A stretch of 62,425 bases of DNA, taken from Rhizodiscina lignyota. Taxonomy: Eukaryota. The stretch spans positions 434,001 to 496,425 of the forward strand of contig ML978139.1 of assembly GCA_010015805.1 (NCBI GenBank), in the 5' to 3' direction. Position numbers and translations under genes: made by a program. Shown in pieces: positions 7,887 to 62,330 of this stretch (the first letter of the stretch is position 1; each line of letters opens with the position of its first letter). Under the pieces are notes generated by a model. That model did not search any database. It saw only the letters and a list, made by a program, of their open reading frames with translations, and was not told the DNA's origin.

Positions 7887-8298
7887 ATCGTCGAGAAAGA
7901 ATTAGACAGGCACTGCAGTTTGCGACAAGAGTCTCTTTGAACCATAGAAAGCTGTGAAGTGAAGGATTGTTGCCTTTTGCAGTCTGGTGGCGCAGCTTTG
8001 AGACGTGCGAGGTTTGCGGCTGAGCTGCACACGTCTGCAAGCTAATGAAGGCCGAGAACATCCACACCGCGTCAAGGGTATTTGAACTGTATACCGAGGT
8101 GGTATTTCCAGCTCAGATATATCTGTGGCGATCTTGTTGAAGATAAAAGAATAACTCGAAGGTATGGGATGTAGCCTTAGGTAGTGTTAAAGATTTCACA
8201 TGGCTGAGGCAGGCGGGCGCGGTTCGACTTAGACAAGAGCATTTGAATCCCTAACGAACTCAAATGGTGTTCCTCTTCCATATAAGAATACATATGGC

Positions 8299-37988: not shown

Positions 37989-38957
37989 ATGACGGAAACT
38001 GCGGCAGCTTCCACGTCGTTCTCGCCGGAAAAGACATTCAAGTCATACACACGCGAGCAAGGCGAGGCCTATGCGCAGAGCCGACGCGGCTACCATCCCA
38101 AGCTATATGAAACCATTGTCGATTATCACACATCCCACGGTGGCAAACTAGACACTCTTCTTGATGTCGGCTGCGGTCCAGGAATCTCAGTCCGAGAATT
38201 TGCACCGCGCTTCGCTCACGCCATTGGGCTTGATGGATCGGAAGGAATGATCGGTACGGCTCGTTCCATTGGTGGTGCCACATCAACATCCGAATCCATT
38301 CGTTTTGAAGTGTCTCCTGCTGAAGAACTTGGATCTCAAGTATCACCGCCCATTCCAGACTCCAGTGTCGACGTCATAACCTCCGCGACTGCTGCGCACT
38401 GGTTCAACATGTCGGAATTCTGGCCACGAGCCGCAAAGATCCTGAAACCGGGCGGTACCGTTGCATTATGGACAACAAGCAGCAGAATCTTCGTGCATCC
38501 GTCGACGCCAAACCATGAATTAATCCAAGCCTCTATATACGAGCACCTTGAACGGCAGCTTGCCCCTTACGTTGAGCCTGGCAATATGCTGGCCCGGAAT
38601 CTATATGTTGACCTCAAGCTCCCTTGGACACTCGAACAGACGGTACCTGGATTTGATCAGAGCACATTCGTCCGAAGGGAATGGAATCGCAGTGGAGCAA
38701 ACGCGGCAGATGATGAATTTCTAATGAGCCAATACACATTGAAGCTGGAAGCACTCGAGAAAGTGCTCGGGACCGCAAGTTGGGTGACACGGTGGCGCGA
38801 GGCACATCCAGATGCCGCTGGTACAGAGAGTGATGTGCTGAGGATGATGAGGACAGAGACTGAGCGGCTGTTGCACGAGGCTGGCGTGGAAGAGGGAAAT
38901 GAAGTGATAACGGGTGGTAGAGCTGGTGTATTGCTGATGCTGCAGAAGAAGGCGTAA
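37989..38957 (+). CDS. Class I SAM-dependent methyltransferase (trans-aconitate methyltransferase-like)
   Basis: LLDVGCGPG motif I, GLDGSEGMI, ATAAHWF and LKPGGTVALW in a 322-aa ORF. Confidence 0.87.
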   Translation: MTETAAASTSFSPEKTFKSYTREQGEAYAQSRRGYHPKLYETIVDYHTSHGGKLDTLLDVGCGPGISVREFAPRFAHAIGLDGSEGMIGTARSIGGATSTSESIRFEVSPAEELGSQVSPPIPDSSVDVITSATAAHWFNMSEFWPRAAKILKPGGTVALWTTSSRIFVHPSTPNHELIQASIYEHLERQLAPYVEPGNMLARNLYVDLKLPWTLEQTVPGFDQSTFVRREWNRSGANAADDEFLMSQYTLKLEALEKVLGTASWVTRWREAHPDAAGTESDVLRMMRTETERLLHEAGVEEGNEVITGGRAGVLLMLQKKA

Positions 38958-40490
38958 AATCTTTCTGCGGAGTGAAGAAAGTCAAGAAAGGAACAATAGC
39001 AATGAAAAGTCAGCCTGCTCATTGAAACGACCGTATAGCTTTGTGATGAAAGCGTGATTTCAGCTGACCCATTGCACAGATGCGAGCGTATGGACTGTAG
39101 TTAACGAATCTGGGATTTTTTATATATAATGCTTATCGAAACTCTCTGGTCGGTGACGAGTCAATACTTACTTAGAAATGGGATTGTTTGATCATACACT
39201 TTCGCGCAAACTTTTTGGAGCTTATTGATTGACAAAATGCTACTTCAATACAGGCCCAGATCCCAAGAGTCAATGATGCCCATAGCTTCTGTTGCACAAC
39301 TGGCACCAGTGGAGACCATCAAACAGCAGCATCCCGACACGCATCAATTCGTTTAATAATCTCGTATAAAGTATCCTCTAACGCCAGACTTCAGATGGGA
39401 TCATATGAGAAGAGCAATGATGCTATCGCAACGAGCGATGCCAATCATAGAATCAGCGAGACTGTATCGAGAATCTTGACTTGAAATTAGAAGTGCATCC
39501 TTCAACGGTTTCAGACAGATGAAATGTAATGCATGCTGAGAGAGACTTCTCAAATATGACCATTCTGGCTTGCAACACTGCAATTACTTCACTGAATGTT
39601 CCAAGGAGGTACTAACGATGAAAAATTGGGAAACAGTCACAAGAACAAAGTGCTGTGATTTGGGAGAAGGACGAGAACAACAGACCTGCTCACGTTTCTG
39701 ACCTCCATTGCAACAGGAACGAAGTATCGATGTATTCCCACAAATCATTCACCTCCGAGGCATCAATGCCTCAAAAGTCACCTCGAGTTATTGTGGTATT
39801 CGCAGCCTGGTGCTCTCTACCGCGAGCACTGAAATAACTAACCATCTCTTCGTTTATTTCATGCTCACTTTCTCATTCTCGATGTTATCACGACTCAATG
39901 CTGACATAGATCAATTGAAATGCAGAATGACGCGTCCCTTGCTGTGCCCTTCTTTTCACATAATTCTCGCGGCGATCTTATGCCCTGAATGCAGGCTGCA
40001 AGGCAGACTTCGTATTCACCAACGGTTGCATCGATCCGGCTAGAGTCCTGACTCCCAGCCAATTCCCTGCGACCCCTGAATATGAATATACAAAAGCTTG
40101 ATCAATTGCCTGGACACACTAAAAGGCGTCGGTCAGCCTTTGGCTCACGAACAGATCACGCTAGACCGAGAAGGGTTCCATTCCTCCACAGCACAGCAAG
40201 CCCCGCATATACAACCATGAAGTCGAAATGAAGGAATCAGACGAAGGCTTCTTCTTGCAAGCCATATTCTGGAAATGAGCGTGGGAGGCATCGTTTGCGA
40301 AAGGCAGTTTTCAAAATGAGTGATTTCGGCGTAGACGACGCGGAGGATAAATTGATAGCAAGAGCGAGCATTTTCTATTCTCGAGACTCAAGGCGAATAT
40401 CTTCCGACTTGCGACTCAACTTTCCTCTAATTTGCTCTACGTCAATCTCTCAATTTTCCCTCGTTCGGTTCCTCACTCACCTGTTCCGCA

Positions 40491-42340
40491 ATGTTGTTCT
40501 TTGAGATTCTCTCCTCTCTGTCCCTGTGGCCTTTCGCAAAAGCCACCGCACAGACTTGCAAAGCTGTTCCCGGAACTGCTTTATGGCCATCTGCAGCTGC
40601 CTGGACATCTCTGAACCGCACACTCTCCGGTGCCCTCATCAAGTCAATCCCACCAGGCGGCGTCTGTCATCCAGGCTGGCCGAACTACAACCGGAATTCC
40701 TCATGCGCCGAGGTACAAAAGCTCTGGCTGACCTCTTGGGCCTTCCACTCAGATGACCCTGTAGGCAATGGGTACAACAACTGGAACAACGACAGCTGCT
40801 TGCCCAGTCCACTGGTTCCATGCACCGACCTTGGATATCCAGTCTATGTTGTCAACGCAACGAAGTCGGAACATGTCCAAGCAGGAGTCAACTTTGCCCG
40901 TGACCACAATGTCCGACTCATCGTCAAGACTTCTGGTCATGACTTCCGCGGCCGCTCAGTAGCTCCATATTCCTTGTCAATCTGGACACACAATCTTCTT
41001 GGTCTGTCGTACCATGCGAAATTCGAACCTTCCGGCGGCAGATGTGACTGCGGAGACAACTGGCTGTCAGCGTACAATGGACCTGCAATCAAAATGGCCG
41101 CTGGCGAAAATCACGGGGCCGCGTTCGACTTTGCAAACAAGCACGGCCTCATGATTCATGTCGCCGGTGCTCGTACTGTCGGCCTCGGTGGTTACATCAC
41201 AGGCGGCGGACATTCTTTGATCAGTTTCCAGAAAGGTCTCGCAGCTGACAGCATCTTGGAACTCACTGTTGTCCTTCCTTCAGGAGATATTGTCACTGCC
41301 AACGCATGCAAGAACCCCGATCTCTTCTGGGCACTTCGTGGCGGCGGTGGATCAACCGTCGGAGTCGTGCTCGACTTCACAACAAGAGCATGGCAGTCCG
41401 AATCCGTAGCAGATTATGCCTTTGGCTTTGGCAGCCCGACCTTCAACGACGATCGATTCTGGGAAGCAATGGGGTACATGGCCGGACTATTTCCGTCGCT
41501 CATTGAGGCCGGCATCATGACGTACAGCAACATCTACCCAGCTAATGGGACTACATCACCTACCTTGTTGAACGCCAACATGCAGGCACCAAACATGAGT
41601 GCAGCTCGGATGGGTGCGATTCTTGAACCCATCGCAAAGTATATCAATGCGACATTTGCGCCAGACGTCATTGCCGAGATCTTTCCTGGTGGAGAGAAGG
41701 CTTCATACTATGAATGGTGGCAGGCGAACCAAGACACTACAACACCAGTCGGGGTCGATGCCGTCATCTCGTCTCGTCTGTTGGACGCCAAAGCGCTGAA
41801 GAGCCCCCAGTTCAAGACTCTTGCCAGAAAAGCCATGGGTGGCGGCGGGATCCAGATCAATGTTGTCGGTGGACCAGGCACTCATGCCTTCCCGAGTGAT
41901 TGGAATGCTGTAACCCCAGCATGGAGGACAAGCTATGCGCATACACGTACGTTTATCTAATCAAGAACAACCTGAATTGCATTAACGAGATTCACAGTCA
42001 CTGGCGTGTACGTACCTCCTTACGATCCCGCAGAAGATGCGGCACAAATCTTCAACATAACGTACAATTTGAGCGCTGCTTTGCGTGAGCTTGCGCCAGA
42101 TACTGGTTCTTACCTCAACGAAGTAAGACCATTCCAGGAATCCCAATTACATCGCTGCTAATGCTGACCGCACAGGCAAACTCATACGAACCCGACTTCC
42201 AGGACGCATTTTGGGGATCAAACTACCCTCGTCTCCTCGAAATCAAGCGCAAAGTCGATCCTGGTGATGTTTTCTGGTGCCTTGGTTGTGCGGGAAGTGA
42301 GCGCTGGCAAGCGATTGGTGAAAAGCTGTGTCGAGTGTGA
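40491..42340 (+). CDS. Secreted FAD-linked oxidoreductase (berberine bridge enzyme / VAO family)
   Basis: Signal peptide, SGHDFRGRS covalent-FAD His motif, GGGHS and DLFWALRGGGG. Later exons encode GSYLNEA and FWGSNYPRLLEIKRKVDP. Confidence 0.9.
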
Positions 42341-44662: not shown

Positions 44663-46269
44663 ATGGCTATCATTGAAATTACCGGAAATGTTCAGAGTCG
44701 CTTTATTCAGGCTGCGGTTCTCCTTCACTTGCTCGACCCAGTCCGTGGCGAGCCAACGACGCATGGCCTCGATCGAGACTTGAACGAATTCGAACTGAAC
44801 CGAGAGCGTCTTCTTAAACGGAAGTTTCTCGACTCTTTTGCGCTTATCTGCGCAACGAAGAAAGACGGCGATACCGTATCGGCGGCTTCTTTAGAGGAGG
44901 GGCTTCCAGAGGGGACGGTCATTCGCGTCGCGAGCAATCACGGGGTCACAAAGGCTACCCTATGTGGGCTACAGGAACTGGTGTCTATCCTAAACGCTGT
45001 TGCCAGTGGCGGTGAGCAACACCATCGAGATAACCAAACTTACTGCTTATAGTAGCTTCATGTCGCAGAGTGCATCGCGTCCCATAAGGAGTCGGAGGTC
45101 CCAGCACGGATCATCAGTCTAGATATTGCCAGAATACGGTACTATCTAAAGGAACTCCGCAGCGTCAGCGACAACGTGAAAGAGGCCATCGGACGCTTCA
45201 AGTCGGGAACTGCGTATCTCCAAACTGATCATTCTCGCTCCGTAAACTTCACTGAATGGATCGCACACGTCTTTGAGATAAGAGACTTGGCTCCGGATCT
45301 TGCTCCTAACAGTCTTATCGACCACATTTGGTGGGCTCTGGAAGCTCGGCGAACTTACCTGGAGTGCTTGAAGGCTGCATTCTCTACCAAGGGCCAGGCG
45401 TTCCCTCGATGGGTCTACCTATTCTCAAGCTTGGACGATATGCGGTCGCCTCTATGGCCTTACTCCGGCTTGCTTCCGAGTTTCCGTCTCTATTCAGCCC
45501 AATGCTTGTAGAACCTGCAATCGCTCCTCAAAAAGTCCAGTTCACAATCACGAAACAGGAGATGCCCCTGACGAGTGTGCTTCGAAGACTTGTCACGAGT
45601 AGTCAAGTAGACGATTACATTTCCCGGCTAGCTCGTGTCTGGGGTGTTGTGGACGCAGAGGTCCATTTCCGAGAGGCTTGTGCTTTAAGCCTATCTGTTC
45701 ATGCCGAAATGCAGCTTCTCAACTTCTACGACCATAATCCCGGGAGAAGACCGGCATTCCGCTTTATTGGGGTGAGCAAGAAATCCTGTTTTCTCTGCCA
45801 GCGGTTTCTTGTAAACCATCCACAAGCTTTCGGCGTTTCGTCTTGCCACCAGAAGCTTTATCTCCCTTGGAGGCCTCCGCCCGCAGCCAATGCCACCATC
45901 TACAGACAGTACAAGAGTATTACAACTGACCTTAGTAAAGATATGGAGGCGGCAGCGAAGCAGGAGTTGCAAAATCGTCTCGGTCTCCGCCGGCCTGTTC
46001 CTCCTGACTCAACTGCTGGTGTGTCTCTCTCTGGTTTGTCGGGAGAATTTGTGGTGGGGGAAACTCTATACGCGACGTCATCGCTCTCGCCGATTGACGT
46101 GGTGGACCTCACATCGCCAGATGAGGAACTGTCCCAGTCCTCGTTTAACATCTCTCCTGTCGGCGACGCATTCTCAATTGCTAAAATGGTATTCCATGTG
46201 ATGCGCCCTGGCGAGACTCAGAGGCAAGACATTATCGCTATACGCGATATACTCTTAGGGGAAAACTGA
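44663..46269 (+). pseudogene. OTT_1508-like nucleic-acid deaminase gene with a 1-nt frameshift
   Basis: FLDSFALICA...IRVASN N-terminus, intron 45012-45068 and catalytic HAEMQLL...IGVSKKSCFLC. The frame changes at ~45419 (FPRWVY to ILKLGRY). Confidence 0.7.
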
Positions 46270-47735: not shown

Positions 47736-49172
47736 TTACCATTGCCGCACATTGACCCCCATGTTCTGCTTGAAGCTGAAGAAATCAGACAACACTGTGG
47801 CTACTCTCTCCACAATCATGTCGATCTCGGCAGGTGTGACATTGTAAGGGGGTGCGATGAGGACATGGTCTCCAACAACACCGTCCACTGTGCCTTTGCC
47901 TGGGTATAGACATATGTTATATGGCTCCTGCATTGCCAGCTCGTGGATGGAATAGCCTGCGCTCAACTCCAGCGGCAACGGCTCCTTTGTGACCTTGTCC
48001 CGTACAACCTCTATCGACCAGAACAAGCCCCGCCCTCTGATCTCACCGACGTTTGAATGCGACGCGACGGCAGTGTGAAGGGATGTGGCAAGGCGGCTTC
48101 CCATTTCTCGCACGTTAGACAGCAGGCCATCTTCCTTGATGATGTTTTGGACTTCCAAGGCTGCAGCACATGCCGATGGGTGCGCCTGGAAGCTTTGGCC
48201 GTGTGAAAACTTTGAGGTGCCAGATTCCAGAACTCGATTCACTTCACGGTCGATGAGCACACCAGATATCGGGACATATCCTGCACCGAAAGCTTTGCCA
48301 ATGACCTGAATGTTGGGTACTACATTTTCTTGTTCCCAGGCGTGCATGGTACCTGTTCTGCCCATGCCGCACATGACTTCGTCGAGGATCAGGAGGGCTC
48401 CATGCTTTTCGCAGACTCGCTTGACCCCGTCAAAGTAGCCGTGAGGAGCAGGCACGGTGCCGGTTGATGCACCTGTCACCGGCTCTGCAACAAAGGCACA
48501 GACCGTGCCTTCAGGAAAGCGGGCAAATTCATCGTCCAGTTCTTGCACAAGTCGGGAAACGTATGCTTCGATCGATTCTCCGTCTCCGAGTCCACGATAG
48601 GTGTTGCATTGAGATACGCGGCTGCTGTTGGTAGGGAGGATCGGCTCGAATGGACCGCGACGACCTAGATGGCCACCAATTCCCAACGTTGTGAGCGTTG
48701 CGCCATGGTATGAGGGCAATCGCGCAATGAAATGTTTCCTAGATGGTTGAGGGTTCCGTAGTTCAAGATAATATTGTCTGGCAAGTTTCAGAGCCGCCTC
48801 CAGTGCTTCTGACCCAGAGCTGAGCGTCAGTAGCCTCGCCATTCTTCCTTTAGTCGAGTCTATGACCGTTGCTGCTAGCTCTTCACTTGCGGCTGTCGTG
48901 AAGAATTGGCTATGGCAGTAAGGCACCGTGTCCATCTGTTTCCGGACCGCTGTTTTGACTCTGGCGTTGTCGTGACCCACGCATGCCACCGCAGAACCAC
49001 CGCATGCATCGATTATCCGTCGTCCGTCGGCTGTATAATAATAGATTCCTGATGATTTGGTGATGACGGGTGCTTGTTGGCGGAGATCCCGGGACAATAC
49101 GGCGCTGATGCTGCTGGCGTGCGCTTGCGCTTTCAAAGACCTTTGCATAAGGCGCCTTGAGATTTTGAACAT
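47736..49172 (-). CDS. Class III PLP-dependent aminotransferase (omega/beta-amino acid transaminase, YodT/BioA-like)
   Basis: Intronless. Motifs DACGGSAV, SGSEALEAALK, SYHGAT, AFVAEPV, LILDEVMCGMGRTG and IGKAFGAG (PLP lysine). The N-terminus is Arg/Ser-rich. Confidence 0.92.
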   Translation of the reverse strand: MFKISRRLMQRSLKAQAHASSISAVLSRDLRQQAPVITKSSGIYYYTADGRRIIDACGGSAVACVGHDNARVKTAVRKQMDTVPYCHSQFFTTAASEELAATVIDSTKGRMARLLTLSSGSEALEAALKLARQYYLELRNPQPSRKHFIARLPSYHGATLTTLGIGGHLGRRGPFEPILPTNSSRVSQCNTYRGLGDGESIEAYVSRLVQELDDEFARFPEGTVCAFVAEPVTGASTGTVPAPHGYFDGVKRVCEKHGALLILDEVMCGMGRTGTMHAWEQENVVPNIQVIGKAFGAGYVPISGVLIDREVNRVLESGTSKFSHGQSFQAHPSACAAALEVQNIIKEDGLLSNVREMGSRLATSLHTAVASHSNVGEIRGRGLFWSIEVVRDKVTKEPLPLELSAGYSIHELAMQEPYNICLYPGKGTVDGVVGDHVLIAPPYNVTPAEIDMIVERVATVLSDFFSFKQNMGVNVRQW

Positions 49173-49817
49173 GATGGACACTCGTGAGTCATTATTTGTG
49201 GCTAGAGGAAGTTGTAAACTTGCAATCAAAATGGCTCATAAGGGCTATGTGAGTCCACAACGAGAGTTGCGGCATAGGCCACAGTATATGGCGTGAATGA
49301 AAATGGAACGAAGTTGGGGAACCAGATTCGTAGCTTTTTTCGAATATTCTTAGAGCCTTTTTACAATATCAGATAATAATTGTTCAGCTCCTTTAGTAAG
49401 CCGCATGGGTTTGAAATTTGAATGGCCCCCTTGATTTGTGGGGGACGCTGTGACGCTGATCCCGGTGGGTTTTACAAGTAAGCGTACACCGCGTGACAAG
49501 GAAATAACGAAATGCAATAATAATGAGGAAGGGAGTAACAATGACGAAGAAATTAGCGCTTAGAATACTGTAGGCTTCAGCATGTTTACTAACTTAAGTT
49601 TCAGTTGACAAGAAATGCACCTAGTGTCTCTGTACCTGCACACCGATCCTGGTCTGACTGGCCACGCACCGGTAAAAGAGCTTGTCACTGACTATTTTCA
49701 CAGCTCTCGAGCTCTTGTTCCATATTCGTTGTGTCTTCTGTCTTGTTTGCTGTAATTTTCAGATACTCTTCATCATCGCTCAACGAGTTGTCAATATAAT
49801 GACTTGGCCGATACATC

Positions 49818-51289
49818 ATGCTACCTAAAAACTACCAGCTCTTCTCCAAGAGTGCTCTTCCTGCACTCTTCAAAAGATTTCAGCCAAACCTCGATGGAGA
49901 TAAGTTCATTGCGGCAGCTCATGTATTTCCCATGCGAGTTAATAACCATGTGGTCGATGACTTGATTGATTGGTATATGAAACCTGGGTGTTTATATTCT
50001 TGAGTGGCTGATATGTATGTAGGTCAAATGCATCGACCGATCCCATGTTCAGACTGAGCATTCCTCAGCCAGATATGCTGCGTCCCCACCACCTTAACTC
50101 CATTTTAGCAGCCATGCGGAGCCCAGACACCACGAAAGTGGAAATGCGAGAAATCTCAGAGTCAATACGAAGACTTATGAATCCCCATCCAGCCGGGCAA
50201 AAGGAAGAAAATGTGCCTCGGGTGAATGGTGAGCCTGTCGCCGGCTTACAGCACAAGTACCGCGAAACTGTACTTTTCTTCCCTTCTGAGGTGAGCTATA
50301 ACGAGTCTAAGCATTTTTGAATTGAAGCAGTTCATTAAAGTATTCAGGCACAATTCTGTCACGCGTTTTGTACATATTGCTTTAGATGGGCGCAGTTCAC
50401 CTCTGTGGGCTCAGACCAGGCATTCAAGACGTCAGATCGAGATCTTCTTGTGCAGTATATCCAACAACATCCCAGGGTTACCGACGTCTTATTCACTGGA
50501 GGAGATCCAATGGTTATGTCCGCCTCAGCCTTACGCCACTATACGAAGGGATTATATGGACCAGACAGCCCACCGCATTTCAATACTATCCGGATCGGGA
50601 CAAAGTCGTTAGCGTGGTGGCCATATCGTTTCGTAACAGACCCGGATGCTAAAGAAACGCTAAAGCTTTTCTCTGAGATTGTGAATTCTGGAAAACATCT
50701 TACTATTCAAGCGCATTTCAGCCACCCCAGAGAAGTGGAGCATCCGGTAGCCCAGGAAGCCATCAAGCTTATTCGCATGACCGGTGCGCAGATCCGATCC
50801 CAAGCCCCACTCATCAATCATGTCAATAACGACCCTGATACCTGGGAGTCTATGTGGAAGCTTCAAACACGGCTCGGTATAATCCCTTACTACATGTTCG
50901 TGGAGCGTGACACGGGCGCTCGCGACTATTTCTCCGTCCCACTCGCAGAAGTCCTGCGAATATTCAAAACTGCATACTCGCGCTTGCCCGGTACGGCACG
51001 GACAGTTCGAGGTCCGTCGATGTCGGCAGGGCCGGGGAAAGTGTGTGTCTTGGGCAAAACAACCATAAACAATGAAGAATGCTTTGCGCTTATGTTCTTG
51101 CAAAGCAGGAATCCGAAATGGACAGAGAGGATATTTTTTGCGAAATACAACCGTGAAGCGGTATGGTTGGATGACCTCGAGCCTGCTTTTGGAGAGACAG
51201 AGTTCTTCTTTCAAAAAGAATATGACGAGCAGAGAGAAATGGTAAACATTGGATCATCGGGCCAGCTTAGCCTTAGTGGTGAAGTTTAG
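49818..51289 (+). CDS. KamA-like radical SAM/PLP amino acid 2,3-aminomutase, 3 exons, ~454 aa
   Basis: Introns 49973-50022 and 50291-50347. Motifs GLQHKYRETVL, CHAFCTYCFR (CxxxCxxC), VLFTGGDPM, IRIGTK, HFSHPRE, IPYYMF and SAGPGK. Confidence 0.92.
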
Positions 51290-51807
51290 TACTGGAATGT
51301 TTTCTTGACCGAATTGGTCTGAATTTTGGTTCTGTACCTAGATGTGTAGGGAGTTGGGGAAAACTAAGTGATAAGAAGTATTTCTGTCAAGGAAGCTTCC
51401 GGTCTTATGCGAGGATGTGGAATGACGGTGCTAGAAATGCGGTTTATCCTACGATAGCTTCAAATAAGGTCCAAATGAAAGAGATAAGTATTTCCTAAGG
51501 GAACATGAAGACCCTCATACCGTGAGGATTTGGATGGGACAAATCATAGCCTAAGGTAACGCAGAAAGCTCACTATCATGTTCGACTTGGAGACGAGTCT
51601 TTCTCAATGCAGCCATTTGCGATCAAAAATCCGAGTAAAACTTCTGGCCATCCGCTGCCTGTGTATCTGGACCGTTTGTGCCAGGCCAATGATGAGCGAA
51701 ATAGAAGCTATAGTATATCAAGTAATTTACGGTTTTGCAAGAATAAAAGGTTTCATAAATCTATCGGAAATTAACCTGTACCTTTCCATAATTGCTGACC
51801 GAAGGAA

Positions 51808-53744
51808 TTATCGGCGGCCATGAACACCCCAATCATCAGCGAAAGGAATCTCTGGCCAAATCTCAATGCCATGCGGCGCATCAACAGCAGTCTTTCCTTG
51901 TGCGTCCCCGAAATAGTCAGCGAAAACTCGCTTTCTTACAAGCTTGCCAGAGAGAGTGCGGGGGAGTTCTTCCTCGGGCTTGAGAACACGTAGGACGAGG
52001 GGCAACATATAATCTGACATGTTGGCCGCCGCGAGGTCTGACCGGATCTTAGCCAGATTGATGATGCCGTCATTTGGCATGTTGGCGATATTCGGCTTCA
52101 ACACCACTGCGCAGAGCTCGCGCACTCGTGTGTTCGGGACACCAACAACACACGCATCCGACACGTAAGGAAGCTCCATCACAGCGTGCTCTGCATCAAT
52201 GGTCGGTATATAGAACTGCTTGAACTGCACATCTAATAGACTATGAGCTGTAATGATCTGACGGGAACGATCGGGAAGCTTACAATCTGAACCTTTCCGC
52301 CCAAAAATAAAGAACTTGCCATTTTCATCGACTTTACCGAGGTCACTAGTCTTGTAGAACCCGTCCTCGTCAAAGGCTGCACGGGTGCTTTCCTCACGGC
52401 CAATGTAACTAAATCGGATTAGAGACACAATAAACAGGCACGATTGTCATGCATATGTGCGTAGACTCACTGTGTCATCATTGTCTTGGACTTGACACGA
52501 ATCTCGCCTAAATCCTCTAGACCCTCTATACCCTCTGGCACGAGCTTCATCTCAGCCCCGGGCCAAGGGGACCCGATGCAGCCCTACGTTCCTCTATGCT
52601 TAGAATATCGATCTTTAAAATCAATTGAGGTGACGTACCGTTGGACCAGAAATCTCACTGGATACAATCATGCCGGTCTCGGCCACAGCATATATGCACT
52701 CAAACGGCTTTCCCGTCAAGTCCACCCAAAACTGTCGCACCGAAGCTTCAATCTGGCGAGAGCCAACCATGATCGAGCGCAGGCCTCGGAACATGGTGCA
52801 ATACTTCTTCCTAGCTCCTTCTGATAGCGTACCAGTCCGGGGATCCGTGATCAAGTCCTTCATATCCTTCAGATAAGTTGGGTAGAACGTAGCGCGGGTC
52901 ACGCGGTGATCGACAAAGGCTTGCATTACATCAGGTACAGGAGCACGCAAGTCGAGGGAGTACAGGATCTTCCCTGAGAGCACAGGCTCAATGAGCGAAT
53001 CCGCTGCGCCGACCCAATGGTACGGACGGTAGTTCAGACTGATACCGTCGGGCTCTGCAAGGCTAAGAGGGACCAAAGCCGTTCGAGGAAGACAAACCGC
53101 CTTTGCATCTCCAGTAGTTCCTGATGAGAAAATTGCGAGTCCAGGACTGTCGTCGTCCAAAGGCAAGTTGTGGTCAATTTTGACATCAATGCGGTCCTTG
53201 TGTTGTGCATCACTGGATATGGGACCTGCCGCCAACGAGATCGGAGAAGCATTCGAATTTGCGAAATCACAGATATTACGCGCTTCTTGGTCGCAGTCTT
53301 TTCCATAGAGGATACATGTCGCCCTGGTTGTTTTCAACCAAAAGTAGGCCTGCTCGGGTAGGATATCGTTTGCTGTGCCAATGACTGCGTCAACAAAGTC
53401 GTGTAAACGTAAACATATGACTTGAATTACTTACCTAACGGTATGGCTGCACCACCGAGGGCGCGAATGGCAAACAGACCAACGAGAAACTCATATCCAC
53501 TCTTGACAACAATAAACATATATGGAGCTTCGTGGTGCAAGAGGCCTCGTTCGTTGAGGGCCAAAGGAGGCAACTTCTGGAGAACAGCGGTGCGCGTACT
53601 CAGGACGTCGGCGACTAAGTCTGCATAGCTCTTCTCGAATCCCATCACATCGTGTACTACAACTTCCATAAAAGGTCTTTGCTGGCTGACGCGAAGCAGC
53701 TGCTTCAGCATGATGTCGGATGGGAAGCTGCACGGAGTAGCCAT
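51808..53744 (-). CDS. Adenylate-forming (ANL) AMP-dependent synthetase/ligase, multi-exon
   Basis: P-loop FSSGTTGDAK, YAVAETG, GFYKTSDLG, GRKG and the C-terminal LPRTLSGKLVR lysine motif. Confidence 0.88.
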
Positions 53745-54139
53745 GGCTGCTGTTCAGTCTACACAATTGGTGAGTGAAACGTACGTAGGAATCGTAACAA
53801 AGCATGAGCAAGAAGAAGCTGTAGAATTTGGATGGGCTCAACAAAAGAGCGGCGTTTTGAGATGCCGAAGACGCGTGCAATGATGAACGCAATCATGATC
53901 AAGGGCAAAAAGCGGTCTGTTTAGATCATTTTAGCAACCTCAGCTGACTGTTCACAAAGCTTCTTAGAAGTAGCGAGCATAGTCACACAGTAGCACGCAG
54001 TATCAGGCCTGACTGGCAGCATCTTGAAGCACTTACAAGGTACTCCCTTCAGCGACGACGCCGCATACACATCTCACAGGGCCTGCGGAAATAGCACATG
54101 TCCCGGGCTAGGCTCTCTTTAACACCCTCGGGTGCAACA

Positions 54140-55320
54140 AGTTAAATTTAGAGGCTTCAAACCAAGTGCAAGTTTCAGGCGCAGCCCAAGAGGTCCTATA
54201 GAGTAACCACTAAGTAAAGTTTTGCGAACAAAGCTTCTCTTAATACTTTTTTAAGTCCGGAGTCAATAGTGAAAATTGAAGAATCTAAAAGCTCTAGTAT
54301 TATATAAAATATAAATAATTAGGTAGGATAGAAAGACTATAACATAGGACGGAGAGAACTTTACCAAAAATTACCCTATAGCGGTAAGACTCTCCTACAA
54401 ACACTTTATCCGAGATATTCGCTGCCTAGAAAATCATCTTACGTAACTCTCTTACCTCTAGGCTACCCTTCCTAATCCCGGTTCTCGCGCGTAGCACTTA
54501 GCCTTACTAACCGCTATGTCTTTACTTCCTAGGATGTAACTATAAATATTGGCTATAACTAGCTTACATTTAAACTAGAATTTCGGAGAGACGGTTCTTC
54601 CTAACCTTGCGAACACCCGCGGCCGCGAGGGCAGTTAAAATCGCGACAACATACTAGTTTAGCGAAACTCCGCGAGAAGATATTCTTTAGCCTAAAGAAT
54701 AGCTAAATCCGTATTATTCGATTAGTATATAGCCTTTAGTATATAGTCTTATTTTAATTGCCCTTTTAGCTGTAGGTATAAAGTATAACGTCGATCTCTT
54801 TTCTAATCCTATTAGCTCGTAGAATACGAGAATTTCCCTAATCGCGTTAGCTAGTATCTATACATATGTTATAAATTAGTGAATAGTTAAGCTAAATCGA
54901 ATACTAATCTCTAAAATTTAGGCTAAATAACAGTATTTTAAACTATAGCTAACCGCTTTAAGAGAGTAGGATTTTTTGAAGATATTTAGATCTTCCTATA
55001 TCTATACATAGATTAACGTCCGAACTTATTAGTAATTGGCTAACTAAAATAGACGACGTTATATATTTTGCCTTACGTAGTTTTACGTAGCTAGGGGTAT
55101 ACTTAATTTCCGAATTAGGGGAGGACTATATATTCGCTCCTCTCTATAGGTATTTACAAAATATCTCGAAAACCTTACGAGCCCCTAAACATATCCTACC
55201 GCCGCATAAATTATAAAACGCTTCTTAGGTTATTTAACAAGGATTAAAGGCTCCGTATAGACGGCTTAGCGGGCCGCTCGCGGTACGCAATCAGTAGGGG
55301 TTAATAGAGTACTAATACAG
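54140..55320. mobile_element. RIP-degraded repeat/transposon relic
   Basis: Abrupt AT-rich stretch, TpA-rich and CpA/TpG-poor, with no ORF of 60 aa or more in the six-frame track. Confidence 0.7.
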
Positions 55321-55560
55321 TCTTTCCTCTTAATACCTTACAGATTCGTAATTAAGATCATCCTATGACTTCCTTATTTAATGTCTTACAGGTTTATTTC
55401 TTAGGTCATCATATTTAGAGCTTTTCAGATTATGTGTTCGTTCCCTTCATACCTTGCAGTTCGTGACTCGGATGATATCATGAGCTTTTCAAACCAGAAA
55501 TCTGCTTCCTTTAATGCCTGCAGGTTCGTGACACAGATCACATTATGCGCTCTTCGAATT
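55320..55560. repeat. Three to four degenerate tandem copies of a ~60-nt unit
   Basis: Recurrent TTAAT(A/G)CCTT(A/G)CAG(G)TTCGT(A/G)A...GATCA...ATGAGCTTTTC-like unit. Confidence 0.55.
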
Positions 55561-55572
55561 GGGTGAGATTGA

Positions 55573-55747
55573 TGAAACATGAACTTTCAAGGCTGAGTGT
55601 AGTCGGTGGAGTATGGCCTAAAAATAGGGTCAGTCACGATTTGTGCTTGGGGGTTCGAACCTGTGAAGCATCAACTTTCAATTGTGAATGCAGTCGGTGA
55701 AGTATGACCTAAAAATATGTCAGTACACGATATATGCTTTGGGGTTT
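55573..55747. repeat. Imperfect tandem duplication (~91-nt period) upstream of the Pictet-Spenglerase gene
   Basis: Two copies of AACTTTCAA...AGTCGGTG(G/A)AGTATG(G/A)CCTAAAAATA...GTCAGT...CACGAT...TGCTT..GGGGTT. Confidence 0.8.
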
Positions 55748-55888
55748 GGAAGACGAGAAGAAGGCATATAAAGCCTTTCAAGTCCGTTGACCATTCGTGC
55801 CTTATCCTCCATAATCATCAAGCACTGTCTACATTGCTACTTCAACAATCTTTGCTGTCCAGCTTTTTCTAGACACTAAGAAGCAGTC

Positions 55889-57024
55889 ATGACCATCACC
55901 GCAAGCCACCGCATCAACGTGAAATGGCCCCAGCTGGGTATTACCGTTAGAGCGGAGATGGATGTGAACACCAATCCACGACTGGTCAACTTGTTGTTCG
56001 AAAACTTGCCCTACCGTTCGCTCCAGAACCATGCTTTAGTTTCCGGAGATCACTTGTACCACTTGGTGCCGACGGAAAAGCTCATTGTAAGTGAAATCCT
56101 TCATACAACAGAATTGCACTCTAGCTAATCACCTCGTCTTTCTACTTTGTAGTACACTCAAGCGGACTTCAAGGTCCCCGACAGGACGACCGAGCCCAAT
56201 GGCACGGTCTTCCTCTCCGGGCTCCAGCATTTGGCCATCAAGTATGGCCCACTGACTGAGTACCTCCCAGCGGCACCATGTGGCTATGTCATTCCTGAGG
56301 ACATGCCCGCCCTTTGTGAAGCTGGCCAGGGAATCTGGAAGGCTTGCAACGAAACAAAGCAGGTTATTGAAGTCATCGTTTGGGATGCTTCTCAGCCGGA
56401 GCCTACCGGGCATCTTCCTCTTATCCTCGAGCGGAAGGGATGCTCCAACGAAGTTGTTAAATTGGTTGAGGCGATTCACGATGAGGTAAGGCCAAATACC
56501 TTGAGTACAGACAACCAGCCTACACATCGCTCACATGTTTTCAACTTCATTAGACTGAAAAATCCTGGTCTGGCATTTCCAACGATCTTAGCCTGGTGCA
56601 CATGGGACTGACACCATCGCGTGCTGGCTCGAAGGGCTCCTACTTCGCGACCATGGTCTTCGCGAACGGAGAGATTCGCCCGCTGGGGTACAACGTCTTG
56701 AACAACATCCTGAAGGTGGCCGTAATGCAGCCGCAGTTTGACATTAAGCATCTCGTAACCCTTTACGAGACGTTCGCCTCCGTTCCCGCCGAGTTTGTGG
56801 GCTACGCGGGTGCTAACTGGTTGTACGCCACTCATCAGAGGATTACCACGCTTCTCAGGAAAACCGTTGTCTCAAATCCTAATGCAGATGATGCCCGTGA
56901 GGACTTCTTGGCCCTAGTCAGCGCCTTTTCCAAATACGTCAACCTGCTTAACGCGCAGAACCTGCATGTATTCCCTTGGAAGCATACTACGGAATATCCA
57001 ATCCCAAGGTGGCTAATGTGGTAG
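55889..57024 (+). CDS. McbB/cucumopine-synthase-like Pictet-Spenglerase, 3 exons, ~333 aa
   Basis: Introns 56087-56152 and 56486-56553. LPYRSLQNHALVSGDHLYHL, GTVFLSGLQHLAIKYGPLTEYLPAAP, RAGSKGSYF...NGEIRPLGY, PAEFVGY and NLHVFPW closely match McbB motifs as I recall them. Confidence 0.88.
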
Positions 57025-57592
57025 AGTCAATTTGGATTGGACTAGGCGGCGCAGAATATGGGTTCAATATTCAAGTTTATAGATCAGGAAGATATTTAGC
57101 TCAAGGAGAAGATAGAAAAATTGTGCTCCATCTATGGTAACTAAACTTTGCTACGAATCTTTGAGCGACAATGGGAGATGGGTCCAATCTTTTAGTATAA
57201 ATTTGCGTTTGATTTAATACACTACTCGTTTGGTACCTACTGTTTTCTAAGAAGATTGATTTGAAAAACTTTAACCTCGTTTGGTACCCTACATACAGAT
57301 TACATACGAAGATTCAAGGATGAAGTCCGAATAAGGTGGGCCAAGCAAGTAATACGGGGAAGCTGCCGAAATGCGAGTAAGCTAAGCCAAACCGAAAGCT
57401 TACGACTTGCGGCGGAAGCGGAATTTCGTCTTACCTAAGTCCCAATGTTTATGCAAGACCCGCCCAGGTGAGACTTCCCTTTTGAGGTGCAATCTCCAAG
57501 TTCATAAGCAAAGAGATCTGCCGTCGCCTAGGAAAATGAATCAGACTATACCAAGTACAACTACGCAAAATATTATTGACTAGTCCGAGAAC

Positions 57593-58133
57593 ATGACATC
57601 TGTTTTCGCAACAATCATCGTGTCGCCTCGTCCCGGCAAAACGGAACGAGTAAGTGCTCCCCATTTCACATTGCTTGCCTATAAAATATCTACAGCGCCG
57701 AGGGAATCTAATAGAGCATCTATGTAGGTCAAGGATCTTCTTTCGAAAGTTGGCAAGCAAGCCGAGGAGACTCTGAAGTCAGTTGTACAGTATCAGCTTT
57801 TCGAGCAAACTGGGAGAGACGGAAAAGATCTGGAAAATGGAAAAATCATTGTGCACATGCAATGTAAGTCATGCCAGTTATACGTGATCTTCCCACCACA
57901 TACGGGGCATCTTGGGCAATAACTCGCTTCTGTGTGCTCTATGGAAGAGAAGAACGTTGTACACGTTGCTGATGGATTCGTTCACAGATGCGAATCTCGA
58001 GGCCGTTCTCGCATACCATACCTTAACTGCCTTCCAAAGCTTCCGAAGCGCTATCGAAGAAGAACAGCTCCTCGCTACTCCACTTGAGGTTCAAATGTGT
58101 AAATTATTTGGGGGATTTGCTGCACGGAGCTAA
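57593..58133 (+). CDS. Small ABM-type (dimeric alpha+beta barrel) protein, 3 exons, ~112 aa
   Basis: Only the last exon appears in the ORF track. Exons 57593-57649, 57728-57863 and 57988-58133 with GTAAGT...YAG introns give MTSVFATIIVSPRPGKTERVKDLL...YQLFEQ...IVHMQYANLEAVLAYH...FQSF. Confidence 0.75.
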
Positions 58134-58312
58134 TCCACGTAAGCCGAGCTGTATTACATATATATATTGAATTCGTCTACGCGGTCCCTTGCTTTCTTCT
58201 TCAGCTTCGTAATATTGGATATACGGTGTTCTCTCTTTCACTACACCACCTTTACTACCGGGGGATCCGTACACGTATCAGGCCTTCACTGGCTCTCACG
58301 ACCGAACAACAT

Positions 58313-59003
58313 ATGATCCCCAGGTTCATAATGACCATTCCGAGAACGGCAAGCCGAAACCTTTTACTTCGTCAAAAAGGGCCTTTGCAACGATTTCTCC
58401 GTACCCTCAGCACCACCCATCCCCCACGACCTAACCCGAAGCGCGTTGACATGCCACGACCGTCAAGTTATTCACTTACTAGAAGGTCATTCTCTGCCGC
58501 AAAATCAGCATCACATAATAACTGGTCGCCACCAAAGGCGGGTGAAGAGTATGTGGAGACTCTCGCAATCGAAGACACTTTACCAATGCAAAATAGGCTT
58601 TATACCACCTTCATCGATAAAGGAGGAAACGAACACAAGATAGCTGTATCAAAAGGTGATAACCTGCTGGACGTTGCACAAGCGAACGATATCGACATTG
58701 AAGGTACGAACTACGAAGCTCCGTCTTTGCGATATTTGCCGCAGCTAAAGCAGAACAGGAGCTTGTCAACGATCATGCGCATGCTCCACGTGCCACGTAA
58801 TAGTTGATGGCGAGGAAATGTATGAAAAAATGACTGAGCCTGACGATAGCGAGAATGATATGCTTGATTTGGCGTTTGGTCTCACCAAGACGTCGAGGCT
58901 GGGCTGCCAGGTTATCATAGACGAGGCACTGGACGGCATAAGAGTGAAGCTGCCTTCGATGACGAGAAACGCGCAAGCTAGCGACTTTAGCAGCCAGAAG
59001 TAG
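58313..59003 (+). CDS. Adrenodoxin-type [2Fe-2S] ferredoxin (Yah1-like), 3 exons
   Basis: Introns 58549-58596 and 58704-58758. [32 protein letters not shown]...[18 protein letters not shown]. Arg-rich mitochondrial-type presequence. Confidence 0.9.
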
Positions 59004-59773
59004 AGATTAGGCCATGGAACGGTGGCGGAGCCGCGGAGCCGTGGCGATTAGGAATTCTGGTGTCCGCCATCGCTGTTTTTTAGGTCGTCATGATCTCAGT
59101 GCAATGAAAACTCATGAAGACGTAGAACTAGCTATGATTGTGAAGTTTACTGTTTATAGTACATACATTCCGCTCCTTGGAGGGGAGTAACTCCAACGAC
59201 CCTCAAAATTAAACGACACATGGTCCGATCACAAAGATCAATGATAGCTTGAGAGTCACTGATGACTCTGCTCTAGCCTCCTTAAACTGACCAGCTTGTC
59301 TAATGCCTCTCGCGGCAAAAGTTAGCTCCATGAAGCCGCTTGTGGCAATCTCGGCGAGAATTCCCTTACGGATGCCCTTGTCCAAAGGCTGCAGTATTTG
59401 GAGAATGATGCCTGCGCCACTCTGGGTGCTGACTACAGGGTGGTACATATTGTATACAAGATGTGGAGCCACATGGTGGAGGGATCTACAATGGCCATCA
59501 TGTCAAGCTGAGTAAAGTAAGCGTTCGACTGATCGACAACGCACATGCGTGTGCATCATCGATCAAATATTTTGTGAGACTTAGACTTAGAGTCCTTGGC
59601 CCCTTTCCGCGGTCTCAACTATTTTCATTGCCGCTTTGACCCCTTAAACGCTGGCCTGTGCGAACATGGGGACACGAATAGACTCTCCTCCGTAGGTATT
59701 TTTCATCAATTTCGTTATAGGTCCTGGATTTTGGAATTTCACATTCGTTCTACCAACAGACAGCCTCGACAAG

Positions 59774-61546
59774 ATGAGCAGCGCCGAAGTCTCGCTTCAC
59801 CATTCCACCCATCAGTTGGTGGTACCTCGAGAAGGAGCTGTGATCTGTACTTTACAGACCAGTCCTTCACAGGCCAGCACTTCACATTATGTATTACTGC
59901 AGCCGTCAGGTCTCGATGCCTTGGTCGATTTCGACGGCGTGGGAGACCCGCTCAACCCGCAAAACTGGTCTTTTTCCAAGAAAGTTAGAATAACGGGGCT
60001 ATGGGCGTTGACGACGTGCTGGATCACGTTGGCCTCGGCCATCTACGCCGCAGGCACGCAGCAGATCAGCCAGGAATTCGAGGTGACTGAAGAAGTGGCC
60101 AACGCCGGGACGAGTCTCCTGGTGTTTGGCTTTGCCATCGGCCCTATGCTCTGGGCGCCACTGTGTGAGCTGTATGGCCGGAAGTGGCCTTCTCTTATTG
60201 TACGTTTCCTTTGTTGTTTTCGCGTCAATGATTTTGCGCCAACTTTTTCTTCAAGCCGTATTTCATTAGCGCCGCTTTCGCCTTCGGCACTGGGGCGGCG
60301 AAAGACATCCAGACGGTTCTCATCACTCGCTTCTTCGCCGGCGTGCTTGGAAGCGCTCCGATCTCCGTCACCGGCGGGGCAATTGTGGACATTTGGGCAC
60401 CGAAGCAGCGTGGAACGCCAATCGTTTGCTACGGCGTCACTCTCGCGGCAGCTCCCACCGTAGGGCCTGTCATCGGCGGCGGCTTGGTTGCCGCCTCTCA
60501 GCACAGTGGCTGGCGCTGGACCCAGTATCTAACGGGCATTCTCATGATGATCCAGTTCTTTGTCGATGCTCTTTTTCTCGACGAGAGTCAACCAGACGTA
60601 CTTCTGACTCGAAAGGCGCAGCGGCTGAGACACGAGACTGGCAACTTTGCCCTTCATTCCAAAGTGAGCAGCCTTACCTTATCTGCCCAGGTAATGTGCG
60701 CTGATGTGGTAAATAAAGCGGGAAGAGTCAGGGCCCTCTATCAATGATCTGGTCAATACCTACCTTGTCCGGCCATTTCAGATGCTTCTCGATCCAATTT
60801 GCCAGTTGTTTACAATCTACACGTCCTTCGTGTTTGGTAGGCTTCTTCCACCCTGAATGCTGTCGATTGATCCGCTGACTTGGATGACAACAGCCATCTT
60901 GTACGCCAGCTTGACGAGCTTTGCAATCGAGTACCAGGAAGACAGGATGTTGGGTCCAGTGGTAGGGGAACTGCCGTTCCTTGCAATGTTGGTCGGTTGT
61001 TTCTTCGCTGCTGCCGCCAACATCTACAACAACAACTACTACACAAAACGCTTCGTCGCCAACAACTTCAAGCCGGTAGCCGAAGCACGGTTGCCGCCTA
61101 TGATGTACGGGGGTTTTACCTTTGCTGGAGGCCTGTTCTTGTTCGGGTGTAAGTGAATGGCATGCCGTCCTTGAATATGCGTACTAATACCACATGGGAT
61201 AGGGACTTCTTCACAGCATGTTTCGAGCCCCTGGCCTTCCATTATTGGCGTTTTCCTGACCGGTTTCGGCTTCACGACTATTTTCCAGGCCGCCCTCCAA
61301 TATTTGGTCGACACATTCACTCTTTATAGCGCAAGCGCCGTCGCTGCCAACACCTTCGTGCGGTCCCTCGCTGCTGGTGCTTTCCCACTCTTCGTGTCGT
61401 CGATGTATAGGAAGCTCGGAATTGACTGGGGCACTACTGTCTTTGCACTTTTTGGCGTTGTCCTGCTACCTGCACCATTCCTGTTTTTCAAATGGGGATT
61501 TAAAATTCGCGCTAGAGGACGGTGGAGCAGACTGTCCACTTTATAA
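59774..61546 (+). CDS. MFS drug:H+ antiporter (DHA1 family), multi-exon
   Basis: Motifs DPLNPQNWS, GPMLWAPLCELYGRK, GPVIGG, GWRW, EARLPP and YLVDTFTLYSASAVAANTFVRS. Confidence 0.9.
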
Positions 61547-61549
61547 TGC

Positions 61550-62330
61550 CTTTCTACCTAGACTAATACTGTATACAACTAGGACTTATTCAAGCGGCCT
61601 AACACGTATGTTCGCTCTAGTTACTATATAACCGCAGGTCGTTTTAGTGGCCGGCGTACGGTCCTCCCCCTAAAACCGTACGTTTAGATCCCTACTAAAA
61701 CCTCATATCGTCTAAAAGTAACTAAACTAATCTACGCCTCCGCGACACTCCCTTTTAACTAGTCTAGCAATGTTAGCGTGCTTAGAGAGTAGTAGTAGCG
61801 GAGAGGGCGTCTTTAAATTACTGCCTTAGTCGCTATACTTAGAGTAGTACTATAAGGTAGTCGTATACGCGGAGTATAGTAGTAGCTACACCCTCCGGAC
61901 TATCGACTAGTACTTGTAGGACTAGTATTACATGTTAAAGTAGGATAGGGCGGCCCTTAGGCAGTTCTTCTTAGATAGTAATAGGCTACTAGCCGCCTCT
62001 AACGCGGACGTTGTCTAGCCTAAGGATAGTATATCTCCAATCTACGGCCTCTTAATATATATAGGCTTTAAGTACTATCTATACTACTCCGACTCTAGTA
62101 ATAATAATAACGATAATAGTAATAGTAATAATAATAATAGAAATAACGATAAAAGCAAAAGTTATAGCTATAACTATAATCGCAGTTATAGGTCTTACTC
62201 TTATAATAATACTAATATATTAAAGTACTACTATACTATATATAGCCTAAAGTTAGGGTACGAATACTATTACCCGCTATATCGCTATACTAAGATATAG
62301 ACTCTATAGGCGAAGAAAGGCTAACTCGTG
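61550..62330. mobile_element. RIP-degraded repeat/transposon relic, including an (AAT)n tract near 62098-62140
   Basis: Strong TpA enrichment and stop-rich sequence beginning immediately after the MFS stop codon. Confidence 0.7.

Follow-up and report, generated by a model that had tools for sequence, protein, structure and literature searches.

A characterised Pictet-Spenglerase and its plausible ligase partner in a seven-gene block of Rhizodiscina lignyota

The window analysed here is a 62,425-nucleotide stretch of Rhizodiscina lignyota DNA (assembly GCA_010015805.1, contig ML978139.1, positions 434,001 to 496,425 of the forward strand), in which a first-pass annotation had proposed an alkaloid gene cluster at positions 47,736 to 61,546. 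Seven genes lie there side by side, encoding a class III aminotransferase, a KamA-like radical S-adenosylmethionine (SAM) enzyme, an adenylate-forming enzyme of the ANL superfamily (hereafter the ligase), a Pictet-Spenglerase (PSase), a small protein, a ferredoxin and a major facilitator superfamily (MFS) transporter. We determined that the PSase is an already characterised fungal beta-carboline-forming enzyme and that it plausibly forms a two-gene module with the ligase, the five other genes being neighbours without a demonstrated role. The seven-gene alkaloid cluster as such was not demonstrated and is mostly unsupported.

The genes themselves are real, at the positions and in the orientations first assigned to them, as judged from open reading frames (ORFs), Pfam matches and exon models. 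A Pfam scan took in 12 ORF pieces of the window, seven of which matched a family. Six of the seven domain calls made earlier were borne out by Pfam or NCBIfam (aminotransferase, KamA-like enzyme, ANL ligase, PSase, ferredoxin and MFS transporter), and the ABM call for the small protein was left unconfirmed. Both divergent gene pairs are also present, with a gap of about 650 bp between the aminotransferase and the KamA-like gene and of about 2.1 kb between the ligase and the PSase gene, and no polyketide synthase, nonribosomal peptide synthetase or terpene synthase family was matched among the scanned ORFs, as had been claimed. Three of the window proteins correspond at 99-100% identity to deposited R. 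lignyota proteins (P0001, P0026 and P0146), and the exon models read from the sequence reproduce all three (PSase, 333 amino acids (aa); KamA-like enzyme, 454 aa; ligase, 568 aa). The two genes of the proposed module are as follows.

55889..57024, + strand: McbB-type PSase, 333 aa, exons 55889-56086, 56153-56485 and 56554-57024
51808..53744, - strand: ANL-superfamily adenylate-forming enzyme, 568 aa, five exons (Pfam; identical to P0146)

Exon 3 of the PSase gene (56554-57024) matches the Pfam family Cucumopine_C (PF18631) at an E-value of 4e-45, with 153.9 bits against a cut-off of 27. The window protein is 100% identical to P0001, which is deposited as 'cucumopine synthase' under accession KAF2093315.1. 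Aligned over its whole length, it scores 295.6 bits with the solved structure 3X27, which we take to be McbB. Its Glu102 lies in the motif PLTEYLPAAP, aligned with the identical motif of 3X27, and all 19 fungal homologues compared have this glutamate; assuming a tag offset in the solved 3X27 chain, this residue would correspond to McbB E97. According to the main text of PMC10372676, E97 of McbB and the equivalent E100 of the fungal enzyme Fcs1 are essential.

The activity of the protein is already in print. The main text of PMC12536604 describes KAF2093315.1 as synthesised under the name 'Rhiz-OSase' from R. lignyota CBS 133067 and expressed in E. coli, where, on its own, it converted tryptophan and methylglyoxal to tryptopine A and B. 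In the same text the purified Beauveria orthologue BBA_06474 is reported to use L-tryptophan and methylglyoxal as substrates, and the aromatisation (oxidation) and decarboxylation that follow the PSase reaction are described as spontaneous. Since the PSase is active alone and aromatisation is spontaneous, the core reaction needs neither a carbonyl compound from an aminomutase and a transaminase nor an oxidase. The first-pass annotation named no characterised fungal pathway with this gene combination, but the PSase itself is a published enzyme, and the two steps proposed there beside the ring closure, supply of a carbonyl partner by the aminomutase and transaminase and oxidation or aromatisation by an ABM protein, are not required for the core reaction.

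We also looked for PSase relatives in bacterial genomes. With the single protein as query, 16 pattern matches were obtained and none was a relative; with the PSase alignment as query, one of 31 pattern matches was a relative, at a Micromonospora locus (L161). Within 10 kb of that PSase no relative of the ligase, the aminotransferase or the KamA-like enzyme was found.

The ligase ORF (51808-53430, - strand) matches Pfam AMP-binding and AMP-binding_C. The protein is deposited as 'adenylate-forming enzyme AfeA', a name also given to a Beauveria relative, and it has all invariant residues of a 12-member family alignment, including K194, E335, D408, R423 and K524. When the full-length ligase was compared with 1.84 billion representative proteins, 91 were found at E<=1e-30, and the best match other than itself was P0147 of Beauveria bassiana, 46% identical over residues 5-564. 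A search of the longer class of a named-protein database with exon 2, the largest, returned only the ligase itself among 2497 candidates at E<=1e-8.

The PSase and ligase genes are divergent in the window, with their starts at 55889 and 53744, respectively. In Beauveria, the 90% cluster of P0147 consists of 12 proteins, all from this genus, and the cluster of the PSase orthologue P0002 comprises 17 proteins, 15 of them listed. Results showed that the identifiers of the two proteins are consecutive in six Beauveria assemblies (given as ligase / PSase):

ACQRIU_001474 / 001473 (Beauveria)
ACQRIT_001300 / 001301 (Beauveria)
EJP64481 (XP_008599794) / EJP64480 (XP_008599793) (Beauveria ARSEF 2860)
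PQK14720 / PQK14721 (Beauveria)
KGQ05597 / KGQ05596 (Beauveria)
KAH8710544 / KAH8710545 (Beauveria)

EJP64480 is presumably BBA_06474, that is, Fcs1. In five further Beauveria assemblies the ligase and PSase tags lie 16-30 apart, on equally long contigs, and one Beauveria ligase has no PSase partner among those listed.

The two gene trees agree with each other. In the PSase tree, the sister group of Rhizodiscina consists of B. bassiana and Cordyceps javanica, with an ultrafast bootstrap of 95, not fully settled, and a Shimodaira-Hasegawa approximate likelihood-ratio test (SH-aLRT) value of 90. In a quick tree of the ligase with 26 rows, Rhizodiscina is sister to Beauveria plus one further sequence, with an SH-aLRT value of 100. 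As both adjoining genes of a dothideomycete are thus nearest to genes of Hypocreales, the pair would have been inherited or transferred as a unit. The partnership of PSase and ligase claimed in the first-pass annotation accordingly stands as far as the consecutive identifiers in six Beauveria bassiana assemblies and the congruent trees carry it; the McbA-like character given there to the ligase does not.

The grouping of both proteins with Cordycipitaceae (Hypocreales) makes the two-gene unit a candidate for fungus-to-fungus transfer. In Beauveria bassiana D1-5, protein P0305 (789 aa) joins the ligase to 'Vacuolar protein sorting-associated protein 68', probably through a merger of gene models; this fusion suggests Vps68 as the next gene, on the far side of the Beauveria ligase.

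Among the genes around the PSase, the ligase alone is supported as its partner by these sequence comparisons. The main texts of PMC12536604 and PMC10372676 and our literature searches hold no report of such a pair, and a two-gene PSase and ligase module, apparently new, is plausible. Our best explanation of the locus, to which we give a probability a little above even, is that of a known PSase with a co-travelling, divergent ANL ligase as a two-gene module, the other genes being bystanders. In such a module the PSase would make a 3-carboxy-beta-carboline, as is in print for this very protein (main text of PMC12536604). By analogy with the bacterial pair McbB and McbA, the ligase would then adenylate the C-3 carboxylate of the beta-carboline, and the adenylated carboxylate may be passed to coenzyme A (CoA), an amine or an alcohol. 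A small dicarboxylate is a less likely substrate for the ligase. Rhizodiscina, a dothideomycete, and the hypocrealean Beauveria would share this module, having received it by inheritance or transfer as one unit.

Several observations weigh against this explanation. The PSase works alone in E. coli, according to the main text of PMC12536604. The best solved relative of the ligase is the malonyl-CoA ligase 3NYQ, at 97.1 bits; 6SQ8 and 6H1B, both of which we take to be McbA, score 36 bits and appear only in rows 48 and 50. With 97.1 bits for 3NYQ against 36 for 6SQ8, the analogy with McbA is functional only, and the McbA-type ligase of the first-pass annotation has to be given up. The adjacency in Beauveria was read from accession and locus-tag numbering, rather than from DNA or gene orientation, and it extends the pair to two lineages only. 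In the window itself, the region between ligase and PSase is split by a 1.1-kb relic resembling the product of repeat-induced point mutation (RIP). Finally, the exclusion of the five other genes leans partly on absence of evidence. The intergenic elements between the two start codons are:

54200..55300, no strand: AT-rich RIP-like relic between the ligase and PSase start codons (dinucleotide bias)
55573..55746, + strand: 91-bp tandem repeat, 1.9 copies, about 150 bp upstream of the PSase start (Tandem Repeats Finder)

The relic has a GC content of 0.362, a TpA/ApT ratio of 1.61 and a (CpA+TpG)/(ApC+GpT) ratio of 0.36, vs. 0.495, 0.67 and 1.28, respectively, for the whole window. The tandem repeat has a Tandem Repeats Finder score of 241 with 82% matches. 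A second RIP-like relic lies at about 61500-62250, starting just past the MFS gene, and the two relics (TpA/ApT 1.6-3.0; (CpA+TpG)/(ApC+GpT) 0.2-0.4) bracket the PSase, small-protein, ferredoxin and MFS genes. They show no similarity to each other or to the rest of the window.

On the other side of the ligase lie the aminotransferase and the KamA-like gene.

47736..49172, - strand: class III (omega-type) aminotransferase, single exon, 478 aa from the first ATG (Pfam, NCBIfam)
49818..51289, + strand: KamA-like radical SAM and pyridoxal phosphate (PLP) enzyme, 454 aa, exons 49818-49972, 50023-50290 and 50348-51289 (identical to P0026)

The aminotransferase ORF (47736-49235, - strand) matches Pfam Aminotran_3 at 5.1e-79 and NCBIfam NF005685 (PRK07483) at 522.7 bits, above the cut-off of 485. 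Among solved structures it comes closest to omega-transaminases, including 6IO1 and 3I4J, and its nearest Atlas clusters are mostly from Ascomycota. Two in-frame starts, Met1 and Met9 (49148-49172), are available, and the deposited form, as also found in the Atlas, begins at Met9. Homology to the bacterial enzymes begins at about residue 25-35. The first 25-30 residues, outside the homologous region, are basic and free of acidic residues, and from its composition this N-terminal extension looks like a mitochondrial presequence.

The KamA-like enzyme is much further from its characterised relatives. At 50339-51289 (+ strand) the Pfam Radical_SAM match is weak (21.8 bits, below the cut-off of 29.5). 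Among NCBIfam models, scored with exon 3 only, the KamA family TIGR00238 is nearest, at 97.4 bits against a cut-off of 199.2, and lys_2_3_AblA reaches 73 bits against an equivalog cut-off of 525.4; the protein stays under every NCBIfam cut-off. With lysine 2,3-aminomutase 2A5H it scores 68.5 bits, and the CxxxCxxC motif (here CHAFCTYC), the PLP lysine (here Lys372) and the core alignment are retained. At the positions of Asp293 and Asp330 of 2A5H, which we take to bind the epsilon-amino group of lysine, a low-identity pairwise alignment places Arg328 and Ser365 of the KamA-like protein. With arginine and serine at these positions lysine is unlikely as a substrate, and the enzyme probably acts on another compound.

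Relatives of the KamA-like protein are numerous: in the best 120 of at least 8000 matches, fungal proteins are 58-78% identical to it, and those of bacteria, coral and amphioxus about 56-60%. Among the matches listed, the closest named relative is from Talaromyces rugulosus (TRUGW13939_08032; 78%), followed by the Dothideomycetes Recurvomyces mirabilis, Zymoseptoria brevis and Cercospora kikuchii (69-73%). As these nearest relatives are not from Hypocreales, the gene appears not to share the history of the PSase and the ligase. Its protein lacks a leader, the alignment with bacterial homologues starting at residue 3-4. We also inspected the neighbourhoods of KamA-like genes at 160 prokaryote loci (80 from bacterial genomes and 80 from metagenomes, some of the latter being 1.4-3 kb and too short to hold neighbours). 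An aminotransferase related to that of the window was found at one locus of the 160, with 26.6% identity, and relatives of the ligase, the PSase, the ferredoxin or the MFS transporter at none. The proposal that the KamA-like gene works with such partners gains no support from 159 of 160 loci, where neither aminotransferase, ligase nor PSase neighbours it. A PlsX-like gene (48 of 80 bacterial loci) and an arginyl-tRNA synthetase gene (37 of 80) do recur beside it, mostly in related actinomycetes; we set them aside as functional clues, since they are housekeeping genes and uninformative.

A literature search covering titles and abstract openings gave no paper on a fungal KamA-type pathway. To our knowledge, no radical SAM aminomutase has previously been assigned to fungal secondary metabolism.

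We read these two genes as an intact divergent pair, neighbours of the PSase without demonstrated involvement in its chemistry. They might form a separate module that converts an alpha-amino acid to a beta-amino acid and on to a beta-keto acid, unrelated to the beta-carboline genes. Such a module is compatible with our best explanation, and the divergent arrangement of the two genes, about 650 bp apart, speaks for it. Omega-type transaminases are known to act on beta- and omega-amino groups, and Bacillus kamA sits with yodT, a precedent offered in the first-pass annotation. Yet, the two genes rarely meet in prokaryotes, as the single locus of 160 shows, and their affinities differ: the aminotransferase family is widespread among Ascomycota, while the Atlas clusters nearest to the KamA-like protein come mainly from bacteria. 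The aminotransferase also appears to carry a mitochondrial leader, which the KamA-like protein lacks. We therefore regard a separate module as possible, though on the unlikely side.

The PSase might instead be a lone 'opine synthase', and the ligase a co-inherited or co-transferred passenger with an unrelated substrate. Both publications explain their products with no ligase, a word that occurs in neither main text (PMC12536604, PMC10372676), and in both the gene for the fungal McbB-like PSase is regarded as standing alone or as "unclustered". According to PMC10372676, the Beauveria tailoring genes are located on other chromosomes. The relationship of the ligase to malonyl-CoA ligase fits such a passenger, and so does the occurrence of its family in fungi outside the PSase match list (Cordyceps militaris, Microsporum, Trichophyton and Ustilaginoidea); C. 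militaris is without Fcs1 according to the same paper. Ten further ligase relatives come from Myotisia, Scytalidium, two Aspergillus, Trichophyton, Cylindrodendrum, Hirsutella minnesotensis, Penicillium verhagenii and two others. None of their species is in the PSase match list, so they add no case of adjacency, and the ligase family is wider than its pairing with the PSase.

Against a passenger role stands the retention of the pair across two fungal classes, each protein having its closest known relative in the other lineage, which would be difficult to account for if selection had not favoured the linkage. We roughly estimate at about 1% the probability that some ANL gene directly adjoins a given gene. 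In addition, Beauveria forms a methyl ester and glycosyl esters at the C-3 carboxyl group, and derivatives of this kind, the methyl ester included, accumulate when Fcs1 is overexpressed; the enzyme forming the methyl ester appears unassigned in PMC10372676. The same paper states that the genes adjacent to Fcs1 were not induced in the overexpressing strain. A lone PSase beside an unrelated ligase is in our estimate unlikely, and slightly more so than the separate aminotransferase and KamA-like module.

The remaining three genes of the block lie downstream of the PSase gene.

57593..58133, + strand: small three-exon ORF of about 112 aa, the putative ABM protein, exons 57593-57649, 57728-57863 and 57988-58133
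58331..59003, + strand: mitochondrial adrenodoxin-type [2Fe-2S] ferredoxin, exons 58331-58703 and 58759-59003, with an upstream in-frame ATG at 58313
59774..61546, + strand: MFS transporter of the drug:H+ antiporter type, multi-exon, exons partly modelled (Pfam MFS_1)

The small ORF at 57593-58133 reads cleanly, with canonical GT..AG introns. Its exon pieces (45 and 47 aa, unspliced) matched no Pfam family at E up to 0.05 and had no relevant solved-structure match. The MFS ORF (59696-60747, + strand) matches Pfam MFS_1 at 5.6e-15, and all its NCBIfam multidrug and efflux matches fall under their cut-offs. Both genes are best read as generic neighbours without demonstrated involvement. An ORF at 59212-59502 (- strand) was rejected as a gene, as it matched no family and lacks a start codon close to the N-terminus.

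Exon 2 of the ferredoxin gene matches Pfam Fer2 at 8.5e-05 and retains the C-x5-C-x2-C motif. The best solved match of the protein is the yeast 'Adrenodoxin homolog, mitochondrial' 2MJD (2.1e-29), followed by 2MJ3 ('iron-sulfur cluster binding protein'), 2WLB (mitochondrial 'electron transfer protein 1') and then adrenodoxins. Compared with yeast Yah1 (2MJD), exon 2 is identical at 50 of 77 aligned positions (~65%) and shares the cluster cysteines. At its N-terminus the protein carries a long, basic leader of the mitochondrial type. It is likely, on these alignments, a Yah1 orthologue of the housekeeping type, which weighs against the role of electron donor in the proposed cluster.

In the cluster first proposed, all seven genes would cooperate. 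A beta-amino acid or a carbonyl partner would come from the KamA-like enzyme and the aminotransferase; ring formation would fall to the PSase, amidation to the ligase and oxidation to the small protein, with the ferredoxin as reductant of the radical SAM cluster and the MFS transporter as exporter of the final compound. The genes are indeed contiguous, intact and tightly spaced, with two divergent pairs; the KamA-like protein retains the radical SAM cysteines and the PLP-aligned lysine, and an aldehyde or keto partner might in principle be a product of the omega-type transaminase. However, the PSase makes tryptopine A without any of these genes (main text of PMC12536604). Two cytochrome P450 genes are the only Fcs1 neighbours named in the main text of PMC10372676, the PNAS paper on Fcs1, in which an aminomutase or aminotransferase beside the PSase goes unmentioned, and beyond the Beauveria ligase the suggested neighbour is Vps68. 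The Yah1-like ferredoxin carries its mitochondrial-type leader whereas the KamA-like protein, its supposed acceptor, has none. The KamA-like protein is nearest to Talaromyces rugulosus and Dothideomycetes, the PSase and ligase to Hypocreales, and 159 of 160 prokaryote KamA-like loci hold no proposed partner. No common promoter motif emerged either: in six promoter regions of the block no k-mer was shared beyond shuffled controls, and no transcription-factor family was matched within 47-62 kb of the window.

Cooperation of all seven genes is therefore very improbable, and just as improbable is a version of it in which the product of aminomutase and omega-transaminase is coupled by the ligase to the C-3 carboxylate to give a marinacarboline-like amide.

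Other genes of the window were also noted. At 2-10 kb upstream of the aminotransferase lie genes for a methyltransferase (37974-38957), a BBE-like oxidase linked to flavin adenine dinucleotide (FAD_binding_4 and BBE; 40431-42337) and an OTT_1508-like deaminase (45310-46269), the first two being typical tailoring enzymes. Further upstream is a HET-domain (heterokaryon incompatibility) gene (7167-7901 and 5527-7212), and the other genes of the first 30 kb are ordinary: HMGL-like, steroid dehydrogenase, M28 peptidase, short-chain dehydrogenase/reductase, enoyl-CoA hydratase and histidine phosphatase.

With the two-gene module as the favoured reading, an adenylate-forming enzyme is apparently kept beside a fungal PSase in two fungal classes. 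Should the ligase use the carboxylate of the beta-carboline as its substrate, fungi may produce beta-carbolines that carry an amide, ester or thioester at C-3. The locus also cautions against reading contiguous enzyme genes as a cluster, as one of the seven is Yah1-like and another is a member of a family that is deeply conserved and stands alone.

That family is a distinct subfamily of KamA-like proteins of about 450 aa that are 56-60% identical across fungi, coral (Acropora), amphioxus (Branchiostoma) and many bacterial phyla. The ligase has a namesake in AfeA of Aspergillus nidulans, likewise an ANL enzyme with an essential C-terminal lysine, which works with TmpA in a conidiation signal pathway (PMC4804170). 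No TmpA-like oxidoreductase was noted beside the window ligase.

As to the fungal 'opine synthases', the window PSase is Rhiz-OSase itself and is 75% identical to its Beauveria orthologue. What the window adds to PMC12536604 and PMC10372676 is the surrounding genes: the adjoining adenylate-forming enzyme is mentioned in neither main text, and the R. lignyota aminotransferase, KamA-like, ferredoxin and MFS genes next to the PSase are not described there.

In the bacterial marinacarboline genes mcbABC, the McbB Pictet-Spenglerase is accompanied by the amide synthetase McbA. Here, too, an ANL enzyme adjoins a PSase, one that matches 3X27 at the 295.6 bits given above and shares its catalytic glutamate. 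The fungal ligase is, by contrast, neither of the McbA type nor an McbA orthologue, and no McbC-type decarboxylase family was matched among the Pfam-scanned ORFs of the window, a scan that short exons could escape. The C-3 carboxylate, which McbA converts to an amide in marinacarboline synthesis, is also present in the product of the window PSase. If the proposed module is correct, the fungal route would parallel bacterial marinacarboline synthesis, using a non-orthologous ligase.

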